From: an uncultured Clostridia bacterium
GTDB taxonomy: Bacteria; Bacillota; Clostridia; TANB77; CAG-508
Length of the DNA stretch: 37,365 nucleotides
Direction of reading: 5' to 3'
Assembly: GCA_944386145.1 (NCBI GenBank)
Contig: CALWZZ010000002.1
Coordinates: forward strand, 1-37,365
The notes under the pieces were generated by a model that did not search any database, was not told where the DNA came from, and saw nothing but the letters and a program-made list of their open reading frames with translations. The translations under genes were made by a program, and so were the position numbers. Of the stretch, positions 1,678 through 37,158 are shown one piece after another; the first letter of the stretch is position 1; the number at the start of each line of letters is the position of its first letter.

Positions 1678-2910
1678 ATGCGTAAAATTTTATGTAGTGT
1701 TTTCGCTTTTATCATCATTTGTACATATATAACTGTGGTATATGCAGAAGACAATACAACAAATAATACAAGCAATACAAACAGTAACAATTTAACAGAC
1801 TTACAAACACAACAACAAAATTTACAAGATCAAATAAACCAATCTAACGAAGAATTAGAAGAAGTGCAAAGTCAATTATCAGAAAATTTACAACAAATTG
1901 AAAAATTAGACGAAAAAATCAGAGAATCAGAAAATAAAATAGAAGAATTGAATACACAGGTAGAACAATTACAAGAAGAGATTGCTAGTATTCAATCACA
2001 ATTAGACGTAGCAGAAAAGAATTATGAAAAGCAAAAAGAGATTATGGAAAAACGATTAGTAGCCATTTATGAAGCTGGTGATACAAAATATATAGATGTA
2101 CTACTAAATTCAAGTAATCTTTCCGATTTTTTATCAAGTTATTACTTGATTACAGAAATTACATCAGTAGATAAAGCGTTACTAAATGATGTAGAAGCAG
2201 AAAAGAAAGAAATTGAATTATCAAAACAAAAATTGCAGAAAAACCAAGAATCTTTGGCTACTGCGTTAAAAACGCAAACACAAACCGCAACTGTATTACA
2301 AAATACAAAGACATTAAGAGAAAATTACTTAGCAAGATTATCAGATGAGGAAAAAGCAAAACAAGCACAAATTGATGAAATGACGGAACAATATGAAGAA
2401 GTCAATAATCAAATATTAGAACTTGCAAAGCAAGGATTAGATACAGCCTATATAGGGGGCGTGCTTGCTTGGCCAGTACCAGGATATACCAAAATTACCT
2501 CAAATTATGGAATGAGGGTACATCCAATAACAGGACAATATAAATTACATACAGGTGTGGACATTAGTGCACCAATTGGTGCCAACTTTGTGGCTGCCAA
2601 TGATGGAATTGTAACAAAGGCGGGATATAATACAGCATATGGAAATATGGTTATCATAGACCATGGTGGTGGTATTTCAACACTATATGCACATGGTTCT
2701 GAAATTTTGGTAACGGTTGGACAAACGGTTAAACAAAATGAGGCCATTTTAAAAGTAGGTTCAACAGGATATTCAACTGGACCACATGCACATTTTGAAG
2801 TTAGAATTAATGGGGTGGTAACAAATCCAATCCCATATATCACAAATGGGCTTGTGCCAGGAACAGAAGCAGAAGAAGAGTCACAAGAGGATATGACAGC
2901 ACAATATTAA
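1678..2910 (+). CDS. Coiled-coil M23 metallopeptidase (EnvC/PcsB-like murein hydrolase), paralog 1
   Basis: Signal/anchor segment and a long Q/E/K-rich coiled coil with the motif EKRLVAIYEAGDTKYIDVLL. C-terminal M23 motifs HTGVD and HAHFEV. RBS AGGAGGAG. Confidence 0.9.
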   Translation: MRKILCSVFAFIIICTYITVVYAEDNTTNNTSNTNSNNLTDLQTQQQNLQDQINQSNEELEEVQSQLSENLQQIEKLDEKIRESENKIEELNTQVEQLQEEIASIQSQLDVAEKNYEKQKEIMEKRLVAIYEAGDTKYIDVLLNSSNLSDFLSSYYLITEITSVDKALLNDVEAEKKEIELSKQKLQKNQESLATALKTQTQTATVLQNTKTLRENYLARLSDEEKAKQAQIDEMTEQYEEVNNQILELAKQGLDTAYIGGVLAWPVPGYTKITSNYGMRVHPITGQYKLHTGVDISAPIGANFVAANDGIVTKAGYNTAYGNMVIIDHGGGISTLYAHGSEILVTVGQTVKQNEAILKVGSTGYSTGPHAHFEVRINGVVTNPIPYITNGLVPGTEAEEESQEDMTAQY

Positions 2911-2958
2911 GGAAGTAAAAGAAACAAATGTAAGAGGAGAAAAAAGGAGAAAAACAAA

Positions 2959-4137
2959 ATGAAAAAAATAGGACTTAAAATTATAGGAATAATGATTATA
3001 GCAATTATTGTATTACAATTTAATGTTGTTATAGCAGCAACAAAATCAGAATTGAATGCAAGTAGTAATGAAACAGATCAAAAAATAGAAGAAGCAAAAG
3101 AAGAACTAGAAAATATCAATGCGGAAAAATCAGAAACCTTACAACAAGTAGAAGATTTGATTATGCAAATTTCTTCTGCACAGTCAGAAATTGATGAGCT
3201 AGATAGTCAAATAGCAGATATGAATGCACAAATCGAAGAAGCACAAAATAAATTAGATGAAAAACAAGAAGAATATGATAATAAAGAAGAATTACTAGAA
3301 AAAAGATTAGTAGCTGCTTATGAAGCAGGAGAAACTTCTTACTTAGATGTATTACTTTCTTCAAGTAGTTTAACAGATTTAATTTCTAACTATTATATGA
3401 TATCAGAAATTACACAAAGTGATATGGACTTAATGGAAAAAATCAAGAAAGAGCAAGAAGAAATCGAAACAGCAAAACAAACGATTGAAACAAGCAAACA
3501 AGAATTGGATAGTGTGAGAGCACAAAAACAACAAAAAGCAACAGAATTAAAAAATACTAAAAATGAAAAAGATAATTATGTAGCACAATTAAATGAAGAT
3601 GAAAAAAATACACAAGCAGAACTAGAACAATTTGAACAAGACAAGAGAGATATACAAGCACAATTAGCAGCAATTGCAAGACAAGAGGCTGCTAATGCAA
3701 GTAGTTCAAATGTTTCTAATATTACCAATAATCCTAGTAGTAGTGGATATATTAGACCGATTGTAGGATATAGCATTACCACTGGTTGGATGGGATATAG
3801 TGGACATACAGGTGTTGATTTTAGTGGCTCAGGAATAGCAGGAAAACCAGTATTAGCAGCAAAAGCAGGAACAGTTGTTACATCAACAGCTTTAAAATAT
3901 GCTAATGGAAATTATAGAAGTTATGGAGAATATATTGTTATTAATCATCATGATGGAACTATGACATTATATGCACATGGTGCACCAGGTTCAAGATTGG
4001 TAAGTGCAGGACAAACCGTTAGTCAAGGACAACAAATCATGAGTGTAGGAACAACTGGAAATTCAACAGGATATCACTTACACTTTGAAGTAAGAGTAAA
4101 TGGAACACCAGTGAACCCAACACCATATTTACCTTAA
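2959..4137 (+). CDS. Coiled-coil M23 metallopeptidase, paralog 2
   Basis: Same architecture as paralog 1: EKRLVAAYEAGETSYLDVLL, M23 motifs HTGVD and HLHFEV. RBS AAGGAGA. Confidence 0.9.
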   Translation: MKKIGLKIIGIMIIAIIVLQFNVVIAATKSELNASSNETDQKIEEAKEELENINAEKSETLQQVEDLIMQISSAQSEIDELDSQIADMNAQIEEAQNKLDEKQEEYDNKEELLEKRLVAAYEAGETSYLDVLLSSSSLTDLISNYYMISEITQSDMDLMEKIKKEQEEIETAKQTIETSKQELDSVRAQKQQKATELKNTKNEKDNYVAQLNEDEKNTQAELEQFEQDKRDIQAQLAAIARQEAANASSSNVSNITNNPSSSGYIRPIVGYSITTGWMGYSGHTGVDFSGSGIAGKPVLAAKAGTVVTSTALKYANGNYRSYGEYIVINHHDGTMTLYAHGAPGSRLVSAGQTVSQGQQIMSVGTTGNSTGYHLHFEVRVNGTPVNPTPYLP

Positions 4138-4231
4138 ATTATGATATAGTATCAAAAAGATTTTATACTTAAATTTTTAATATTTGCTTCATGACCTTTT
4201 ACGAAGTTATAGAAGAAAAAGGAGGAAACGT

Positions 4232-5494
4232 ATGAAGAAAGTATTTAGTAAGATACTAGGGGGATTAATTAGTGCTGTACTCATTTTACAATTTAATGTT
4301 ATTGTATATGCTGATGAAATAACAGATTTGAAAAACGAGCAAGCTTCTAATGAAGAAAAAATGCAAGATGCCCAAGAACAAAAAGACCAAGTTACACAAG
4401 CAAAAAGTGAAACATTACAACAAGTGGAAGAAATCGAAAATCAAATAGCAGATTATGAAAATCAAATTAATGCGTTAGATACAAAAATAGGAGACTTGAA
4501 TAATCAAATAACAGAGGCAGAAGAACAAATTAATCAAAAACAATCAGATTATGATAAGCAACAAGAATTATTAGAAAAGAGGCTTGTGGTAACCTATGAG
4601 TCAGGAGAAACATCATTTTTAGATGTATTACTTTCTTCAAAGAGTTTAACAGATTTGATTTCAAATTATTATATGATTTCTGAAATTGCACAAGCAGATA
4701 TGAACTTAATGGAAAGTATAGAAAATGAAAAAAATGAAATAGAACAAGCTAAAACAACGCTAGAACAGAACAAACAAGAATTAGATTCATCAAAAGCAGA
4801 AAAAGAAAGTATGAGTGTTCAATTGCAAAATGCAAGAGAAGAAAAAAATACCTATGTTGCGCAATTATCTTCCGAAGAACAAGAGTTACAAGCACAAATT
4901 GATGAATTAGAAGAAGCAAATAAATCTATAGATGCAGAAATTCAACAAAAGCAAGCAGAAATTCAAAAGAAATTACAACAACAAAGACCAACATCTGGTG
5001 GAAGTTCTTCAGGAAGTAGTTCTTCAAGTGGTAGCTCTTCAGGTAGTAGTTCAAATGGTGGAACTTCAACAGGCGGTGGAGCCGTTAGCAGCTCAGGATT
5101 TATCTATCCAGTTCCAAGTGGATATACAAGAATTACGACATATATGTATTATTCAAGTGGACAATATCATGGAGCAGTTGATTTTGGTTCAGGAGGAATT
5201 AATGGACAACCAGTCTATGCTGTGGCAGATGGAGTCGTTGTAACAGCAAAAGCATTAAATTATAGTTATGGAAATTACATTATCATTGCACATTATAATG
5301 GATTATATACATTGTATGCACATGGACAATCAGGATCTATCAGAGTTTCAGAAGGAGATTATGTTTCTCAAGGACAGCAAATTATGAATGTAGGAAGTAC
5401 AGGAAATTCTAGTGGACCACATTTACATTTTGAGGTAAGAACAAGCCCAGGATTATATGCTAATAGAGTAGACCCAACAAATTATTTACCTTAA
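4232..5494 (+). CDS. Coiled-coil M23 metallopeptidase, paralog 3, with a Ser/Gly-rich linker
   Basis: The ATG at 4232 is preceded by AAAGGAGGAAACGT. The TTG at 4184 in the ORF track looks like an over-extension. Motifs EKRLVVTYESGETSFLDVLL, HGAVD and HLHFEV. Confidence 0.88.
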   Translation: MKKVFSKILGGLISAVLILQFNVIVYADEITDLKNEQASNEEKMQDAQEQKDQVTQAKSETLQQVEEIENQIADYENQINALDTKIGDLNNQITEAEEQINQKQSDYDKQQELLEKRLVVTYESGETSFLDVLLSSKSLTDLISNYYMISEIAQADMNLMESIENEKNEIEQAKTTLEQNKQELDSSKAEKESMSVQLQNAREEKNTYVAQLSSEEQELQAQIDELEEANKSIDAEIQQKQAEIQKKLQQQRPTSGGSSSGSSSSSGSSSGSSSNGGTSTGGGAVSSSGFIYPVPSGYTRITTYMYYSSGQYHGAVDFGSGGINGQPVYAVADGVVVTAKALNYSYGNYIIIAHYNGLYTLYAHGQSGSIRVSEGDYVSQGQQIMNVGSTGNSSGPHLHFEVRTSPGLYANRVDPTNYLP

Positions 5495-7082: not shown

Positions 7083-7167
7083 ATCTTATACGCTTCTTGC
7101 TAGACATTAAATTAATATAGCAAATATCAAAAAGTAGAGAAAAAGGTCTAGCGAAGCTAGATTTGTT
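7083..7167. repeat. Structured intergenic repeat, copy 1 (hairpin GCTTCTTGCTAGAC ... GTCTAGCGAAGC), upstream of pgsA
   Basis: Roughly nine-tenths identical by eye to 12519-12602. Weaker similarity extends upstream to about 7073. Internally self-complementary. Confidence 0.8.
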
Positions 7168-8056: not shown

Positions 8057-8533
8057 ATGGAAGAAAAGGAAGTTATATTAACACAAGAGGGGTATAATAA
8101 TTTAGAGAAGGAATTAAATTTTTTGAAAACAGAAAAAAGAGCAGATATCGCAGATAGAATAAAAGTTGCATTAGGCTTTGGAGACCTATCAGAAAATTCA
8201 GAATATGATGAAGCAAAAAATGCACAAGCAGAAAATGAAGTAAAAATTGCAGAATTAGAAAATAAATTAAGACATGCAAAAATCATAGATGAAAAAGATA
8301 TTGATACAGAAACTGTTCAAATTGGAAATAAAGTAAAAGTATTAGATGTTGAATTTGACGAAAAAATCGAATACACGATTGTAGGTTCAACAGAAGTAAA
8401 CTTAGCAGAAAACAAAATATCAAATGAATCACCTCTAGGAGAAGCATTACTAGGTGCTAAGAAAAATCAAACAGTCGAAGTAAATGCACCAGCAGGTGTC
8501 ATGAAATATAAAATATTATCAATCAAAAAATAG
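8057..8533 (+). CDS. greA: Transcription elongation factor GreA
   Basis: 158 aa. N-terminal coiled coil with acidic-tip motif GDLSENSEYDEAK. C-terminal globular domain ending SPLGEALLG. RBS AAGGAGGA. Confidence 0.95.
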   Translation: MEEKEVILTQEGYNNLEKELNFLKTEKRADIADRIKVALGFGDLSENSEYDEAKNAQAENEVKIAELENKLRHAKIIDEKDIDTETVQIGNKVKVLDVEFDEKIEYTIVGSTEVNLAENKISNESPLGEALLGAKKNQTVEVNAPAGVMKYKILSIKK

Positions 8534-8673
8534 ACAATTGGGGCCAGGTGATGATTTTAGGGACGGAGCAAAAAATCATCATTATACTAAATTATTAAAT
8601 TTAATAATCAATTTTTAAATATAATGATGATTTTTTGCTCCGTCCCTAAAATCATCACCTGGCTCGGATTGTC
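8533..8673. repeat. 141-bp palindromic element filling the greA/deoD convergent gap (43-bp perfect arms)
   Basis: 8544-8586 is the exact reverse complement of 8620-8662. Outer GACAAT/ATTGTC also pairs. Contains the sub-hairpin GATGATTTT-aGGGACGGAGcaa-AAAATCATC. Confidence 0.9.
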
Positions 8674-9393
8674 TCAAACAGATTCTAAAGCAAGTTTAAT
8701 CATTCTGTCTAGTCCATTTTCTCTTTCTTCAGAAGTAGCGGCTTCGGTTTTAAATCTTGAATCCACAACAGTCATTAAGCAAGTGGCTTTTTTATTTAAC
8801 AACTTTGCATTATAGCATAAAGCAAAAGCCTCCATTTCAGCACTTAAAGCATGAAAATCTTTAGGCACTCTTGCCATAAAACTATCAAAATCTTCTTGAG
8901 TCATATAAGGGTCAAAACAATCACTACAAATGGTGTTTCCTTCTATAACATGAATGTTGTTTTTACTTGCAACATCTTTTATTCTTGTATTTAGTTCTGG
9001 ATTAGCTTCTACAATATGACAATCTTCATTATGAAATGTTAAAGCAAAGTTACTTTCACTAAAAATAGATTTTGAAAGCACAATATCAAATAGATTTAAT
9101 TCAGGAACATAGGCTCCACAAGAACCAATTCGAATAATATTTTCAACTTCATAAAACTTAAATAATTCATAAGAATAAATTCCCATACTAGGCATTCCCA
9201 TTCCAGAAGCCATAACAGTTACGTCTTTTCCCTTATATGTTCCTGTATAGGCATAAATTCCTCTTACTTGATTAACTAACTTGGCATTTTCTAAGAAATT
9301 TTCGGCGATATGTTTTGCACGAAGTGGGTCACCAGGCATGATAACCGTTTTTGCAATATCTCCTAAATTTGCTTCATTATGTGGTGTAGACAT
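8674..9393 (-). CDS. deoD: Purine nucleoside phosphorylase, DeoD type
   Basis: 239 aa, PNP/UDP family: MPGDPLRAKHIAE, GMGMPSMGIYSYEL, SAEMEA. RBS AGGAGG. Confidence 0.9.
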   Translation of the reverse strand: MSTPHNEANLGDIAKTVIMPGDPLRAKHIAENFLENAKLVNQVRGIYAYTGTYKGKDVTVMASGMGMPSMGIYSYELFKFYEVENIIRIGSCGAYVPELNLFDIVLSKSIFSESNFALTFHNEDCHIVEANPELNTRIKDVASKNNIHVIEGNTICSDCFDPYMTQEDFDSFMARVPKDFHALSAEMEAFALCYNAKLLNKKATCLMTVVDSRFKTEAATSEERENGLDRMIKLALESV

Positions 9394-11557: not shown

Positions 11558-11731
11558 TTCTAAGGATAGATTAGATTCATAATATATATTTTTTAATTTT
11601 TATTTTAGAAATTTGTTCAAAATTTTATAATCAAGTTTATTTTAGAATATCATCTATAATTCTAATAAAGTATATGTGAAAAATATACTTAGTTTAACTT
11701 CGACTTATTTCATTCGGAAAGGAGGGATTTC

Positions 11732-12349
11732 ATGGTAGATACAATAGAAAAATTATGGGAGAAAATGCAAGAAGAATTTGACAAAATAAATGGAAAATTT
11801 GCAGAACACGACAAACGATTCGACCAAATAGACGCAAAATTTGCAGAACATGACAAACGATTCGACCAAATAGACGCAAAATTTGCAGAACACGATAAAC
11901 GATTTGACCAAATAGACAGCAAACTTGTAGAACATGACAAAAAATTTGCAGAACATGACAAACGATTCGACCAAATAGACGCAAAATTTGCAGAACATGA
12001 TAAACGATTTGACCAAATAGACAGCAAACTTGTAGAACATGACAAAAAATTTGCAGAACACGACAAACGATTCGACCAAATAGACAAAAAATTTGCAGAA
12101 CACGATAAACGATTTGATAAACAAGACAAAAAACTTGAAGAACATGATGGAAGATTTAACAGTATAGAAAACAAATTAGATATTATGGTAAATGTAAATT
12201 TGGCACAAATCTTAAATGAACAAACAAGAACAAGGACAGAATTAACGAAAAAAATAGATGATTATATGGAAAAAAATGAATTTGAACATAAAGAAATAAA
12301 TCTAAAATTAGCAGAAGATGAAGAAAAATATAAATATTTATCTGATTAA
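11732..12349 (+). CDS. Heptad-repeat coiled-coil protein of unknown function (about 10 units of KFAEHDKRFDQIDA)
   Basis: Strong RBS GGAAAGGAGGG. The repeats differ mainly by synonymous changes (CAC/CAT, GAC/GAT, TTC/TTT), which supports translation. A non-repetitive C-terminal tail follows. Confidence 0.8.
   Translation: MVDTIEKLWEKMQEEFDKINGKFAEHDKRFDQIDAKFAEHDKRFDQIDAKFAEHDKRFDQIDSKLVEHDKKFAEHDKRFDQIDAKFAEHDKRFDQIDSKLVEHDKKFAEHDKRFDQIDKKFAEHDKRFDKQDKKLEEHDGRFNSIENKLDIMVNVNLAQILNEQTRTRTELTKKIDDYMEKNEFEHKEINLKLAEDEEKYKYLSD
11795..12172 (+). repeat. In-frame 42-bp tandem repeat array with two 21-bp half units and a higher-order 105-bp duplication
   Basis: The unit AAATTTGCAGAACAYGAYAAACGATTYGACCAAATAGACGCA and its variants were read directly from the sequence. 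Confidence 0.9.
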
Positions 12350-12518: not shown

Positions 12519-12602
12519 ATCTAATACGCTTCTTGCTAGACCTTAAATTAATATAGTAAATGTTAAAAAGTGAAGAAAAGGACTAGCGAAGCTAGATTCG
12601 TT
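12519..12602. repeat. Structured intergenic repeat, copy 2, ending 20 nt upstream of the LCP start codon
   Basis: Aligns with 7083-7167 with a few substitutions and one indel. Similarity extends upstream to about 12500. Confidence 0.8.
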
Positions 12603-31478: not shown

Positions 31479-31817
31479 ATGTTCATTTTTGATATATCAA
31501 ATATTTTAAATTTAATTTTAATGCTTATAGCAACAATATTATTAATCTTTTTAGCACAAGAGCTAAAGAAAAGTTATATAACTGGAATTGCATTGTTTGC
31601 ATATCTAATTTTATTGATTGTACATGCAGGACAGATGATAACATTACCAGCAGAATTTCGTGATATGTTACCAGTGCTTGGAAGATGTATAGCAATTGAT
31701 TTTGTATTTATATTTATTACATTCTTTGCATATTTATGGGTTGATGATATTGAAGCTAAGAAAATGCAAAAGAAAAGCCTTGATAATAGTTTAGACTGGT
31801 TATGGAAAAATGTATAA
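31479..31817 (+). CDS. Small three-TM membrane protein, unknown function
   Basis: RBS AAGGGGG upstream and three hydrophobic helices. No recognisable family. Confidence 0.55.
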   Translation: MFIFDISNILNLILMLIATILLIFLAQELKKSYITGIALFAYLILLIVHAGQMITLPAEFRDMLPVLGRCIAIDFVFIFITFFAYLWVDDIEAKKMQKKSLDNSLDWLWKNV

Positions 31818-32123
31818 TGTCTAATTGTCCAATTGGGGACGTTTCTTTCCGAGACATTTTTATGTTAACAATAATATTGGAAAAATAATGTATATAATAT
31901 TTTATTCATTAAATGGCTAACATTACAGAATATACAAATTCTAATATTACCAAGCATGAAATTGCTGGCACACCGCAGATTTCCTACTTGATAATATAAG
32001 AATTTGTAATATTCCTCCATTTGCACATTTAATCTCATAAAATATTATATACATTATTTTTGTTAATAAATTTTTATAAAATTGATAAAATGTCTCAGAA
32101 AGAAACGTCCCCAATTAGACATT
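31816..32123. repeat. 308-bp MITE-like long palindromic element with 37-45-nt terminal inverted repeats
   Basis: Left TIR 31816-31860 and right TIR 32087-32123 (AATGTCTAATT[GTCCAATT]GGGGACGTTTCTTTCYGAGACATTTT). Internal matching blocks include a 24-nt exact inverted match (AAAATAATGTATATAATATTTTAT). Confidence 0.85.
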
Positions 32124-33096
32124 CTAGTATTTGGATAGCATTACTTGCTGCGCCTTTTCTTAAGTTATCTGCGACAACCCACAAATTTAGTCCATACTTA
32201 ACACTAAAATCTTTTCTAATTCGCCCAACAAAAACTTCATTATATCCATCTGCTTTTGTTGCAATTGGATAATAATTTTTTTCAATATCATCTACGACAA
32301 TAACACCAGGGAAATTTTGTAACAATTGTTTTACATCATAAAGATCAAAATCTTTTTCAAATTCAACATTAATGGATTCACTATGGCAATTCAAAACAGG
32401 GACACGCACAGTGGTAGCGGTAATTGGCAAATGTGGTCTATTTAAAATCTTTCTAGTTTCATTTATCATTTTATGTTCTTCTTTTGTATAACCATCATCC
32501 ATAAAGACATCAATATGTGGCAAGCAGTTATTAAAAATCGGATAAGGAAATTTCTTGGGAGCAAAGCCATTCATTCCGTTTTCTAAATCTTCAATGCCTT
32601 CTCTTCCAGCACCAGAAACCGCCTGATAAGTAGAATACACAATTCTTTTAATTTGGTAAGCATCATCTAAAGGCTTTAAAGGAACAACGGCTTGAATCGT
32701 AGAGCAATTAGGATTAGCAATAATTCCTTTATTTTTAAAAGCTTCTTGCATATTTACTTCTGGAACGACTAGAGGAACATCAGGATCCATTCTGTAAACA
32801 CTACTGTTATCAATGCAAATACAGTCATGTTGGACAGCAATAGGTATGTACTTTTTAGAAACGCTACCTCCTGCACAGAAAATGGCATAATCAAAATGTT
32901 TGTTAAACGAATTTTCATCTAACTCTTGTAGAATATAATTCATTCCAAAAAATTCAATCTTTTTACCAGCAGATCTTTTAGAGGAAAATAACGTATATTC
33001 AATATTTGGGAGCGATTTTTCCTCTAATACTTTTAAGGCAGTTCTTCCTACAACACCGCTGGCTCCAACAATTGCTACTCTATATCTTGTTTTCAT
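32095..33096 (-). CDS. asd: Aspartate-semialdehyde dehydrogenase
   Basis: VAIVGASGVVG and active site IANPNCSTIQ. Start chosen at MKTRYRV after GGAAAGGATGG (the ORF track extends to 33117). The last 8 codons lie inside the repeat TIR. Confidence 0.9.
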   Translation of the reverse strand: MKTRYRVAIVGASGVVGRTALKVLEEKSLPNIEYTLFSSKRSAGKKIEFFGMNYILQELDENSFNKHFDYAIFCAGGSVSKKYIPIAVQHDCICIDNSSVYRMDPDVPLVVPEVNMQEAFKNKGIIANPNCSTIQAVVPLKPLDDAYQIKRIVYSTYQAVSGAGREGIEDLENGMNGFAPKKFPYPIFNNCLPHIDVFMDDGYTKEEHKMINETRKILNRPHLPITATTVRVPVLNCHSESINVEFEKDFDLYDVKQLLQNFPGVIVVDDIEKNYYPIATKADGYNEVFVGRIRKDFSVKYGLNLWVVADNLRKGAASNAIQILECLIGDVSF

Positions 33097-33175
33097 ATAG
33101 CTAACCATCCTTTCCATAGATAAAAAATTATTCTATTTTAAAGTATATGCTTGTTAAAAGAAAAATTGCATAATA

Positions 33176-33398
33176 GAGACAGTTTGGGACAGGTTAGGTC
33201 CAATTGGGGACGTTTCCTGATGTCAATGGGGACGGAGATTTTGACAACTTTAATACTTATAATACTTACAATACTAATACTTATAATATTTGTAATTTTA
33301 GTTAACAAAATTTAAAATTGTAAAAGTTGTCAAAATCTCCGTCCCCATTGACATCAGGAAACGTCCCCAATTGGACCTAACCTGTCCCAAACTGTCTC
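33176..33398. repeat. 223-bp palindromic element with perfect 76-bp arms and a 71-nt AT-rich spacer
   Basis: 33176-33251 is the exact reverse complement of 33323-33398. The spacer carries roughly 9-nt periodic AATACTTAY units. Confidence 0.95.
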
Positions 33399-33464
33399 AT
33401 TAGAACAATTGTAACAGAAAAAGAATACAATATACTAGACATAAAATGGAGGTGTAGTAAACAA

Positions 33465-33692
33465 ATGAGCAGAAGAACAATTAATACATTAGCAATGGAG
33501 GAAATAGGAATTGTTAGTAAAATTATAGGAGAAGAAACAATAAAAAGAAGATTGTTAGATTTAGGATTAATAGAAGGAACAGAAATAAAACCTGTATTGA
33601 TAAGTCCTTCAGGAGACCCTAGAGCTTTTGAATTTAGAGGAGGATTAATTGCTATTAGAAAAGAAGATGCAGAAAATGTGGAAATAAGATAA
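33465..33692 (+). CDS. feoA: Ferrous iron transport protein FeoA
   Basis: 75 aa, SH3-like FeoA pattern (RLLDLGLIEGTEI ... IAIRKEDAENVEI). Confidence 0.85.
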   Translation: MSRRTINTLAMEEIGIVSKIIGEETIKRRLLDLGLIEGTEIKPVLISPSGDPRAFEFRGGLIAIRKEDAENVEIR

Positions 33693-36600: not shown

Positions 36601-37158
36601 ATGCTAATGCAAATAGAATTATCAAAAATACAAAATTTATTAGATTGGATGAAAACAAAAATTTATTTAGATACAATTTCAACCAATGCAATAAAAAGAG
36701 TAGTAAGAAGAGGAGAAGTTTATAAATGCAATTTTGGTATTGGAATTGGATCAGAAATGCAAAAAGAAAGACCTTGTATAATTGTTCAAAATAATACTAG
36801 AAATTCTCGTTCAGGAAATGTAATTGTTGTACCTATATCTCACACCAATAAGAAAATATCTTGTATAGTACCAATAAAAACTAGGATAGATAAAGAAAAT
36901 AATATTATTTTAGATGGTTATGCAAATGTTTCAAACTTAATGTGTGTAAGTAAAGCAAGGTTAAGCTCATATATAGCAACAATATCTAAGGAAGAAATGA
37001 AAAACATTGATATGGAATTATTTGCAACTTTAGATTTATTTAATTATTATAAGAAATTTGAAAGACAATTAAAAGATAAAGATCTATATATTTCAAAATT
37101 AAAAAATCAATTAACAGAATTAAAGAAAATTGCTAATACAGATTCTTATGAAATTTAA
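36601..37158 (+). CDS. PemK/MazF-family toxin-like protein with N- and C-terminal extensions
   Basis: Core RRGEVYKCNFGIGIGSEMQKERPCIIVQNN...NVIVVPISH matches the MazF/PemK signature. It has about 34 extra N-terminal residues and a coiled-coil tail of about 40 aa. RBS AGGAGGA. Alternative start at 36607. Confidence 0.7.
   Translation: MLMQIELSKIQNLLDWMKTKIYLDTISTNAIKRVVRRGEVYKCNFGIGIGSEMQKERPCIIVQNNTRNSRSGNVIVVPISHTNKKISCIVPIKTRIDKENNIILDGYANVSNLMCVSKARLSSYIATISKEEMKNIDMELFATLDLFNYYKKFERQLKDKDLYISKLKNQLTELKKIANTDSYEI

Follow-up and report, generated by a model that had tools for sequence, protein, structure and literature searches.

A perfect 76-nt inverted repeat between asd and feoA in an uncultured Clostridia bacterium, a probable REPIN-like element of the TIR/TIRYT class

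Repetitive extragenic palindromes (REPs) are species-specific in sequence except for their GTAG tag, and insertion sequence (IS) elements that target the centers of REPs are known. A different arrangement is found in TIRtrons, or TIRYTs, in which genes resembling those of the REP-associated tyrosine transposases (RAYTs) lie within terminal inverted repeats (TIRs) that share the motif GGGGWSAS and are not GTAG REPs; in some species moderately abundant TIR families occur as dimers or clusters, and REP dimers nested in longer palindromes have been described in Anabaena variabilis and Halothiobacillus neapolitanus (Di Nocera et al. 2013, PMC3733652). TIRYTs make up subclass 2.1 of the TnpA-Y1 transposases, beside whose genes no REP-like hairpins were found (Quentin et al. 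2018, PMC6006769), and the same set is RAYT group 1, the largest and most widely distributed, spanning 21 classes including Clostridia, with flanking 16-mers that are only modestly repeated (Bertels et al. 2017, PMC5581495). In the literature, group 1 (subclass 2.1) has only a weak association with repeats or none. Here we analyze E1, a palindromic element between the divergent genes asd and feoA in a stretch of 37,365 nt (the window) from an uncultured Clostridia bacterium (assembly GCA_944386145.1, contig CALWZZ010000002.1). We consider it likely that E1 is a non-autonomous, gene-less, REPIN-like palindromic repeat, mobile by means of a RAYT-like Y1 transposase and belonging to the TIR/TIRYT (RAYT group 1) class. 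E1 is best filed as an addition to this known class of RAYT/TIRYT-associated repeats and not as a new system.

Architecture of E1 and its likeness to known repeats

A first-pass annotation of the window had described a perfect 76-bp inverted repeat, and the left arm (33176-33251) and right arm (33323-33398) indeed match as reverse complements at 76 of 76 positions, with no mismatch. With a repeat finder the arms reach 87 nt at 95% complementarity, and weaker symmetry continues out to 33162 and 33412. The central spacer of 71 nt (33252-33322; neither this nor any other part of the palindromes is assigned a strand) has a G+C content of 12.7%, compared with 47% in the arms and 27.9% in the window as a whole. 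The spacer had been described as built from AATACTTAY units with a period of roughly 9 nt; three AATACTWAY units are found, at 33252, 33261, and 33270, and the periodicity is partial. In total E1 covers 223 nt without coding capacity, and as single-stranded DNA it is predicted to fold at -102.8 kcal/mol (z = -23, 200 shuffles).

Each arm consists of three stacked units, built on GGGAC / TTGGGGACGGAG with the consensus (T)TGGGGAC(G/A)G, and a 6-nt tail. The terminal module T1, GAGACAGTTTGGGACAGGT, occupies 33176-33194 (mirror 33380-33398) and is followed by M2, TAGGTCCAATTGGGGACGTTTCCTGAT, at 33195-33221 (mirror 33353-33379) and by M3, a hairpin GTCAA-[TGGGGACGGAGATT]-TTGAC that holds the canonical motif in its loop, at 33222-33245 (mirror 33329-33352). 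Smaller modules within the arms had been proposed before and are present, with GGACAGGTTAGGTCC at 33187, CCAATTGG at 33200 and 33367, and GTCAATGGGGACGGAGATTTTGAC at 33222. The copies of the motif degrade outward, from the innermost and purest, ATGGGGACGGAG in the loop of a short hairpin, through TTGGGGACGTT to the outermost, TTTGGGACAGG. Also as proposed, E1 shares sequence with two other elements of the window: a 19-mer of M2, GTCCAATTGGGGACGTTTC, is found again at 31827, in the element starting near 31816 (E3 below), and the core GGGACGGAG, shared with the element near 8533 (E2 below), occurs in the window at 8560, 8638, 33229, and 33337 only, where chance predicts 0.00 copies.

An independent contig from another sample, L001, matches the window with 0 mismatches over 2,315 nt and reproduces 33344-33398 together with the adjoining flank. 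As L001 starts inside the right arm, the junction between arm and flank is real, and the repeat is seen to break short-read assemblies. Such a break inside the right arm is also what one might cite for a palindrome created by misassembly, as are the reach of the independent confirmation, which covers the right arm and not the left arm or the orientation of the spacer, and a scaffold gap with foreign sequence at the E3 site of L184, another locus of the same species. We judge an assembly artefact to be very improbable, given that L001 has an identical right arm and flank, that both flanks are syntenic with relatives, and that dozens of independent assemblies contain palindromes of this architecture.

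E1 and its relatives resemble the REPIN/REP-RAYT systems of Pseudomonas and Enterobacteria and the bacterial interspersed mosaic elements (BIMEs) of Escherichia coli in several respects: inverted doublets of hairpin units form a larger hairpin, the modules are mosaic, the positions are extragenic and mostly downstream of genes, target-site duplications are lacking, and repeats flank a single-copy Y1 transposase gene. They differ from canonical REPs and REPINs (RAYT groups 2 and 3) in that the GT[AG]G hairpin foot is missing, with no GTAG or CTAC in the E1 arm, in that the E1 arms are much longer, and in that a motif of 10-12 nt spans 27-74% G+C and at least three phyla (taxonomy being named for isolate genomes and metagenome-assembled genomes (MAGs) only). 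CGTC-tagged REPs were also considered and rejected; CGTC occurs only within CTCCGTCCCC and comes without the 8-9-bp stem, the loop of 4-5 nt, and the CCA tail. For the layering of E1, the nested REP dimers described previously (PMC3733652) provide a precedent.

Empty sites, strain polymorphism, and related elements

The 37-kb window holds three related palindromic elements, E1 to E3, with core motifs far above chance. Sister species (80-86% DNA identity, with 81-91% identity of the asd protein) keep the gene order feoB-feoA / asd-orf112-pgm-cpsB and have no elements at these sites, which answers the proposal of the first-pass annotation to look for empty sites in relatives. Between asd and feoA they have 171-267 nt of plain AT-rich DNA, and the gap between asd and orf112 holds ordinary hairpin terminators. 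In the 10-21 kb fetched for each of their syntenic loci, none of the element sites has a motif copy, and the loci contain only an isolated 8-mer, GTCCCCAA, at a distance of about 8 kb from asd in L185/L186.

Strains of the same species (98-100% DNA identity) are polymorphic at these sites, and the organism is found in the ONAT22-1 and BRZ sample series. L184, which is 98.6-98.8% identical to the window, carries a different and shorter perfect palindrome at the E1 site, AGACAGTTCGGGACAGGT GGGGTTTTGTATCATTTTTGTCGAAAAATGATACAAAACCCC ACCTGTCCCGAACTGTCT, that has only the outer 18-19 nt (T1) in common with E1, with a T>C change mirrored on both arms; its homology to the window is lost precisely at the inner border of T1, and between strains homology ends at 33194 and 33380. 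T1-related sequences also terminate E2 and the element at the E2 site of L189. This last element, found in both L189 and L190, is 385 nt long, with T1-like ends, arms of the type seen in the L184 interior, and an interior about 88-90% identical to that of E3; compensatory A>C and T>G changes preserve its inner 25-nt inverted repeat. The gap between greA and the PNP-family gene can be compared in ten genomes with identical GreA, in which it is variously empty with an ordinary terminator or occupied by a solo motif, by hairpin units with the motif in the loop, or by E3-type arms. The varied alleles at the same sites indicate that the elements are modular mosaics, gained and lost at shared intergenic hot spots, and differences of this kind between strains, at defined sites, are natural material with which turnover in uncultured gut Clostridia could be measured.

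A further arrangement is seen in one relative, L200 (1978-2037), where the entire 60-nt greA-PNP gap is one hairpin, AAAAAGGAAAA...TTTTCCTTTTTT, with two copies of GGGGACGG in the loop; this repeat unit appears to double as a bidirectional terminator.

In the window the same gap, between convergent genes, is filled by E2 (8532-8674), which has arms of 57-65 nt with 89-93% identity, T1-like ends, and the unit GATGATTTTAGGGACGGAGCAAAAAATCATC. Scanning one genome per species, we find E2-type elements in three uncultured MAGs of low-GC Clostridia/Bacillota, some of them at orthologous sites across species. They have in common a unit GATGATTT(T)GGGGACGGAG(A/C)AAAAAATCATCATT around an AT-rich loop of 29-34 nt, and an outer module, GTCCAATTGGGGAC, carried by both arms, a single arm, or none. 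The arms are 91-98% identical within one element, compared with 81-88% between orthologous elements of different species, and near-identical modules of 18-35 nt recur at unrelated loci and in different species.

E3 (31818-32121) is a nested palindrome of 304 nt that sits between a 112-aa open reading frame (ORF) and asd, at the 3' end of the latter. The final residues of asd (CLIGDVSF) and the stop codon (32095-32121) are encoded by the right arm of E3, and the protein here ends in ...ILECLIGDVSF, compared with ...ILENLINV in relatives without E3. About seven terminal residues of asd thus come from a neighboring element, a side effect for annotation that adds to the breaking of short-read assemblies at these repeats. 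The AT-rich interior of E3 (31881-32061, about 180 nt) again forms a nested palindrome, around a small G+C-rich center, GCTGGCACACCGC, and recurs at 88-90% identity in L189 (about 4990-5200) in the same species, within another element with different arms. This interior may be cargo, a small RNA, or what is left of a transposon. In L184 (1430-1560), E3 is interrupted by a run of N, after which a coding fragment resembling a Mur ligase continues into the same arm sequence. This suggests that the genome elsewhere holds another such arm, at the 3' end of a mur gene, or that scaffolding went wrong at the repeat.

E1 to E3 thus belong to a family that is dispersed, gained in this lineage, polymorphic between strains, and gene-less. 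The question is whether a dedicated transposase has to be invoked for it. Local replication errors, such as inverted duplication and template switching, acting on an older G-rich array might make a palindrome and keep it perfect, and the perfect arms, the greater similarity of arms within an element than between species, the mirrored changes between alleles, and the L184 allele, which has the look of an L189-type element shortened by deletion, would all agree with this. Near-identity of 18-35-nt modules across unrelated loci and across species requires copying between sites, and the sister species are empty at these sites; as the origin of E1, replication errors are therefore improbable. The same mechanism could still explain the identity of the arms after insertion.

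A polar motif and a linked Y1 transposase gene

The motif is found well beyond this species. A genome scan gave 44 matches, about half of them chance matches in coding DNA, about as many as expected, and revealed CAATTGGGGACGGAGG arrays in Lachnospiraceae (Dorea, Extibacter, Faecalicatena, and relatives), Coriobacteriia, Fusibacter, and a gammaproteobacterial MAG. A first metagenome scan with a clade-specific pattern gave 0 matches, and a scan for two tandem copies of the motif gave at least 120, some of which are surely ordinary minisatellites or coding repeats; the loci among the matches listed range from 27 to 74% G+C. Three to six separate motif clusters lie within 8-14 kb in L008, L033, L175, and L133. 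Among two-orientation clusters in the collected loci, the G-rich form comes first and the C-rich form second in 54 non-redundant clusters, compared with 1 in the reversed order (p = 3e-15), and because the two classes are distinct under reverse complementation, this bias in polarity is not created by the scan. As in E1, outer copies are more degenerate than inner ones across the clusters.

An all-against-all comparison of 835 neighboring ORFs gave no universal neighbor and one recurrent family, present at seven unrelated loci, which is a Y1/HUH transposase. A hidden Markov model search of 6,918 ORFs from all loci identified eight strong Y1 genes, and in six of these eight loci the canonical motif lies at most about 350 nt from the gene. 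The Y1 gene of L083 has GGGACGGAG about 200 nt upstream, and that of L145 has a single GGGGACGGAG about 50 nt upstream and none downstream. In loci that show both sides of the gene, the upstream side carries GGGGACGGAG and the downstream side CTCCGTCCCC, which is also how the gene-less palindromes are polarized. Individual layers of E1 are found beside these genes too: an M2 variant, GGGGACGT, flanks the Y1 gene of L193, and units beside the Y1 genes of L086 and L156 have an M3-like architecture.

The Y1 proteins exceed the Pfam Y1_Tnp threshold, and their best NCBIfam model is the REP-associated tyrosine transposase, with scores below the equivalog cut-off. The HUH histidines H61 and H63 and the class-2 Y---NP signature (Y121, N125, and P126) are invariant. 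Their top match in the PDB, both by profile (E = 7e-8) and by predicted fold (E = 2.2e-6, TM 0.67, model pLDDT 89.8), is 4ER8, the E. coli REP-associated transposase with a REP hairpin, which ranks above the transposases of IS608 and ISDra2 in both comparisons.

The association also holds when approached from the protein. Three of three homologues picked by protein similarity alone are flanked by their own inverted variant of the motif (GGGGACGY, GGGGACAG, and AGGACGGAC), the flanks being CACATCGGGGACG(C/T) and ACGTCCCCAATGTGC for the first homologue, GAACTTTTGGGGACAGTC and GACTGTCCCCAAAAGTTC for the second, and TTTTAGGACGGAC and GTCCGTCCTAAAA for the third. Motif-first and protein-first sampling thus both tie group-1-like genes to one class of G-rich motif with fixed polarity. 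The three layers of the E1 arm resemble these three variants, so that units of more than one sub-family may be combined in E1.

These findings bear on the idea that E1 is a classical miniature inverted-repeat transposable element (MITE), an internally deleted derivative of a DDE-type IS moved by cut-and-paste through its terminal inverted repeats. Like the Correia/NEMIS, RUP, and ERIC elements, which measure 100-300 nt, E1 is a non-coding, intergenic sequence (223 nt) with long inverted repeats, hairpin potential, and polymorphic occupancy, and the ends of E3, 5'-TGT...ACA-3', would suit such an element. MITEs differ in having target-site duplications and an origin from DDE-type IS, neither of which is seen for the E1 family: none of about 10 copies compared has a target-site duplication and no target sequence is evident, the ends of E1 and E2 (AGACA...) differ from those of E3 (TGTCT...), and no DDE transposase recurs among the 835 neighboring ORFs, in which the Y1 gene did. 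We consider a MITE of this kind unlikely. The suggestion of the first-pass annotation, that the architecture is that of a REPIN/MITE-type non-autonomous element, is supported more generally by the empty sites, the polymorphism between strains, and the link of the motif to RAYT-like Y1 genes elsewhere.

The reading of E1 as a REPIN-like repeat of the TIR/TIRYT class draws on several likenesses. The systems share a G-rich motif of the GGGGWSAS type in inverted repeats around a RAYT-like Y1 gene (here in other genomes), dispersed copies in dimers or clusters, the lack of a GTAG tag, and a broad distribution over taxa, Clostridia among them. An exact fit to GGGGWSAS is seen in L194 (GGGGACAG) and in the right T1 copy of the L189 element (GGGGACAG), and the outer T1 of E1, TGGGACAG, fits at all but the first G. 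In the proteins, HUH, Y---NP, and the RAYT fold are present, and a C-terminal extension like DnaA_C, HTH_23, or HTH_28 is weakly indicated. E1 fits the TIR/TIRYT class in motif type, polarity, absence of a GTAG tag, absence of target duplication, and dimer organization, and its polarity is that of a TIR cassette with the gene removed. E1 differs from described TIRs in being a three-layer composite with perfect arms of 76 nt and no partner gene in the window, and many of the units found here are short hairpins with the motif in the loop, whereas subclass 2.1 was reported without REP-like hairpins (PMC6006769).

A number of points weigh against this assignment. The first-pass annotation had proposed a search for a RAYT or other Y1 partner, and the motif does flank RAYT-like Y1 genes in other genomes; no Y1 transposase gene is present in the 37-kb window or in the fetched loci of the species and its close relatives. 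Since the window has no transposase gene, the mobilization of E1 is inferred. E1, E2, and E3 have only short cores in common, without the near-identical full-length copies that follow a recent burst. The canonical motif, GGGGACGG(AG), has G for A at position 7 of GGGGWSAS, and only outer copies of the GGGACAGG type fit. The C-terminal part of the Y1 model is a helical bundle (residues 193-251), and all its matches to helix-turn-helix (HTH) domains are below threshold. Membership in the class is accordingly incomplete, with the partner gene outside the window, a weak C-terminal HTH, and a match to group 1 made by its published description. In the cited TIRYT and RAYT accounts we found no enzyme of the TIRYT type reported to transpose or to cleave DNA. 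The loci were gathered by searching for the motif, an ascertainment bias that affects the copy densities and the eight Y1 associations, with the test starting from the protein alone free of it. Finally, the motif lies in the loop of a local hairpin (stem of at least 5 bp) in 21% of copies, compared with 9% in a swapped control. A local hairpin was therefore rejected as a universal feature of the motif, being enriched yet present in a minority of copies.

Transposition through single-stranded hairpins is established for IS608 and ISDra2, and the REP transposase of E. coli cuts and rejoins REP hairpins in vitro. By a similar route, a Y1 transposase encoded elsewhere in the genome would act in trans to excise and insert E1 as single-stranded hairpin DNA at replication forks. 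New units would enter existing palindromes or replace their interior, giving rise to nested layers, and the identity of the arms would be kept by recent insertion or by copying from arm to arm; selection is a further candidate for their perfect match.

More tentatively, the GGGGAC(G/A)G(A/G)G repeats and the RAYT-like genes might together form one cross-phylum REPIN-type system, with a motif conserved from low-GC Clostridia and Lachnospiraceae to Coriobacteriia and organisms of 50-74% G+C. Such repeats would have spread into the centers of palindromes and terminator hairpins, building nested mosaics, replacing terminators, and rewriting the 3' ends of genes, as E3 does on asd. If this is true, the largest and least understood group of RAYTs gains its missing cognate repeats.

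E1 is neither a terminator nor a known RNA, and it is no fragment of a phage or plasmid. At gathering thresholds, neither the window nor 18 related loci gave a match in Rfam (below threshold, plant microRNA-precursor models were hit, as a generic long hairpin would be), and blastn searches of a plasmid collection with E1 and with a motif array gave no match. Among viral contigs, CAATTGGGGACGGAG had 12 matches, mostly in apparently coding sequence and none in a repeat array, which we take as chance. Searching the literature for the motif strings returned unrelated primers only. E. coli genomes gave no match to a motif locus from a 'Klebsiella' MAG, and this contig is probably mis-binned.

Other identities of the motif were dropped as well. 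A CsrA-binding hairpin (ACGGA in the loop) would not explain why the GGGG in front is conserved as well, and there are too many copies; to our knowledge, the motif also seems to occur in lineages without CsrA. The loops of a G-quadruplex would be too long, and for an origin from tRNA-Pro or a relation to ribosome-binding sites the spacing to start codons is not consistent. Polar sequences like KOPS or Chi were set aside on the expectation that they would not be conserved across phyla, and a hammerhead-like core (CUGAUG in M2) lacks GAAA and any match in Rfam. In L160 and L148, metagenome loci of about 53-55% G+C, an unrelated second repeat, ...AAGCGGTGCAGGCACTTAGCCCCGGGCCTCGGCCCGGGG..., adjoins the motif arrays in several copies.

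Flanking genes and other features of the window

E1 lies between asd (32095-33117, minus strand), which encodes a semialdehyde dehydrogenase, and feoA (33465-33692, plus strand), which is followed by feoB. Being upstream of both genes, and with no run of T after the arms, E1 is no terminator, as the first-pass annotation had correctly argued. In a scan for consensus sequences only, a promoter-like site for asd, TTAACA-16-TAGAAT, was found at 33130-33157 on the minus strand, with its upstream edge 18 nt from E1, and one for feoA, TTGTAA-16-TATACT, at 33409-33436 on the plus strand, beginning 10 nt past E1. The block around the second feoA hexamer is kept in relatives without E1. A Fur box was also considered and dropped, since the block with the feoA promoter is retained in relatives lacking the element.

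This position is a rare case for the repeat class. Unlike E1, related copies lie mostly at the 3' ends of genes, and the 31 palindromic clusters in loci below 56% G+C fall between co-directional genes in 18 cases, convergent genes in 10, and divergent genes in 3. Arrays with the motif in direct orientation only prefer the sense strand (13 vs 5).

The location of E1, exactly between two promoter-like sites and 18 and 10 nt from their upstream hexamers, together with its AT-rich center and very strong cruciform potential, could be taken to mean that E1 is primarily a host device for asd, feoAB, or both, acting as an operator array or as a supercoil-absorbing cruciform between divergent promoters. 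Sister species have the same gene pair without E1, a strain of the same species has a different interior, and only 3 of the 31 palindromic clusters are between divergent genes; we therefore regard such a device as decidedly unlikely, and we know of no protein that binds E1. Instead, E1 is probably a passenger lodged between two predicted core promoters, selfish or commensal repeat DNA and not a dedicated regulator of asd or feoAB. Any effect of E1 on asd or feoA is hypothetical and unproven, and relatives manage without the element.

Inverted repeats around an AT-rich segment, with promoter-like hexamers on both strands, also recall an invertible promoter switch flipped by a site-specific recombinase. 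The segment measures just 71 nt compared with repeats of 76 nt, and promoter-like hexamers within it are at chance level (20 observed vs 16.6 expected). No recombinase recurs among the ORFs neighboring the motif loci, most genes of the window itself not having been scanned against protein families. A switch of this kind is highly improbable.

Farther downstream, beyond feoB, an ORF of 185 aa (36601-37158) contains a PemK/MazF-like toxin domain. Elsewhere in the window, a sequence of 85 nt is present twice (7083-7167 and 12519-12602; about 89% identity), just upstream of a CDP-alcohol phosphatidyltransferase gene and a LytR-CpsA-Psr gene. Both copies fold to the same long-range hairpin, CGCUUCUUGCUAGAC...GUCUAGCGAAGC (z about -2.4), with no match in Rfam, and the repeat may represent a shared regulatory leader of two cell-envelope genes. 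A tandem array with a period of 21/42 nt and about 13 copies (11710-12217) lies inside an ORF of 205 aa that has weak coiled-coil-type Pfam matches and from its sequence looks like a repetitive coiled-coil protein. Three adjacent paralogous genes (1678-5494) encode proteins of 410, 392, and 436 aa from DNA segments that are 60-75% identical, and their counterparts in L191 are annotated as coiled-coil PcsB-like and M23 peptidase proteins.

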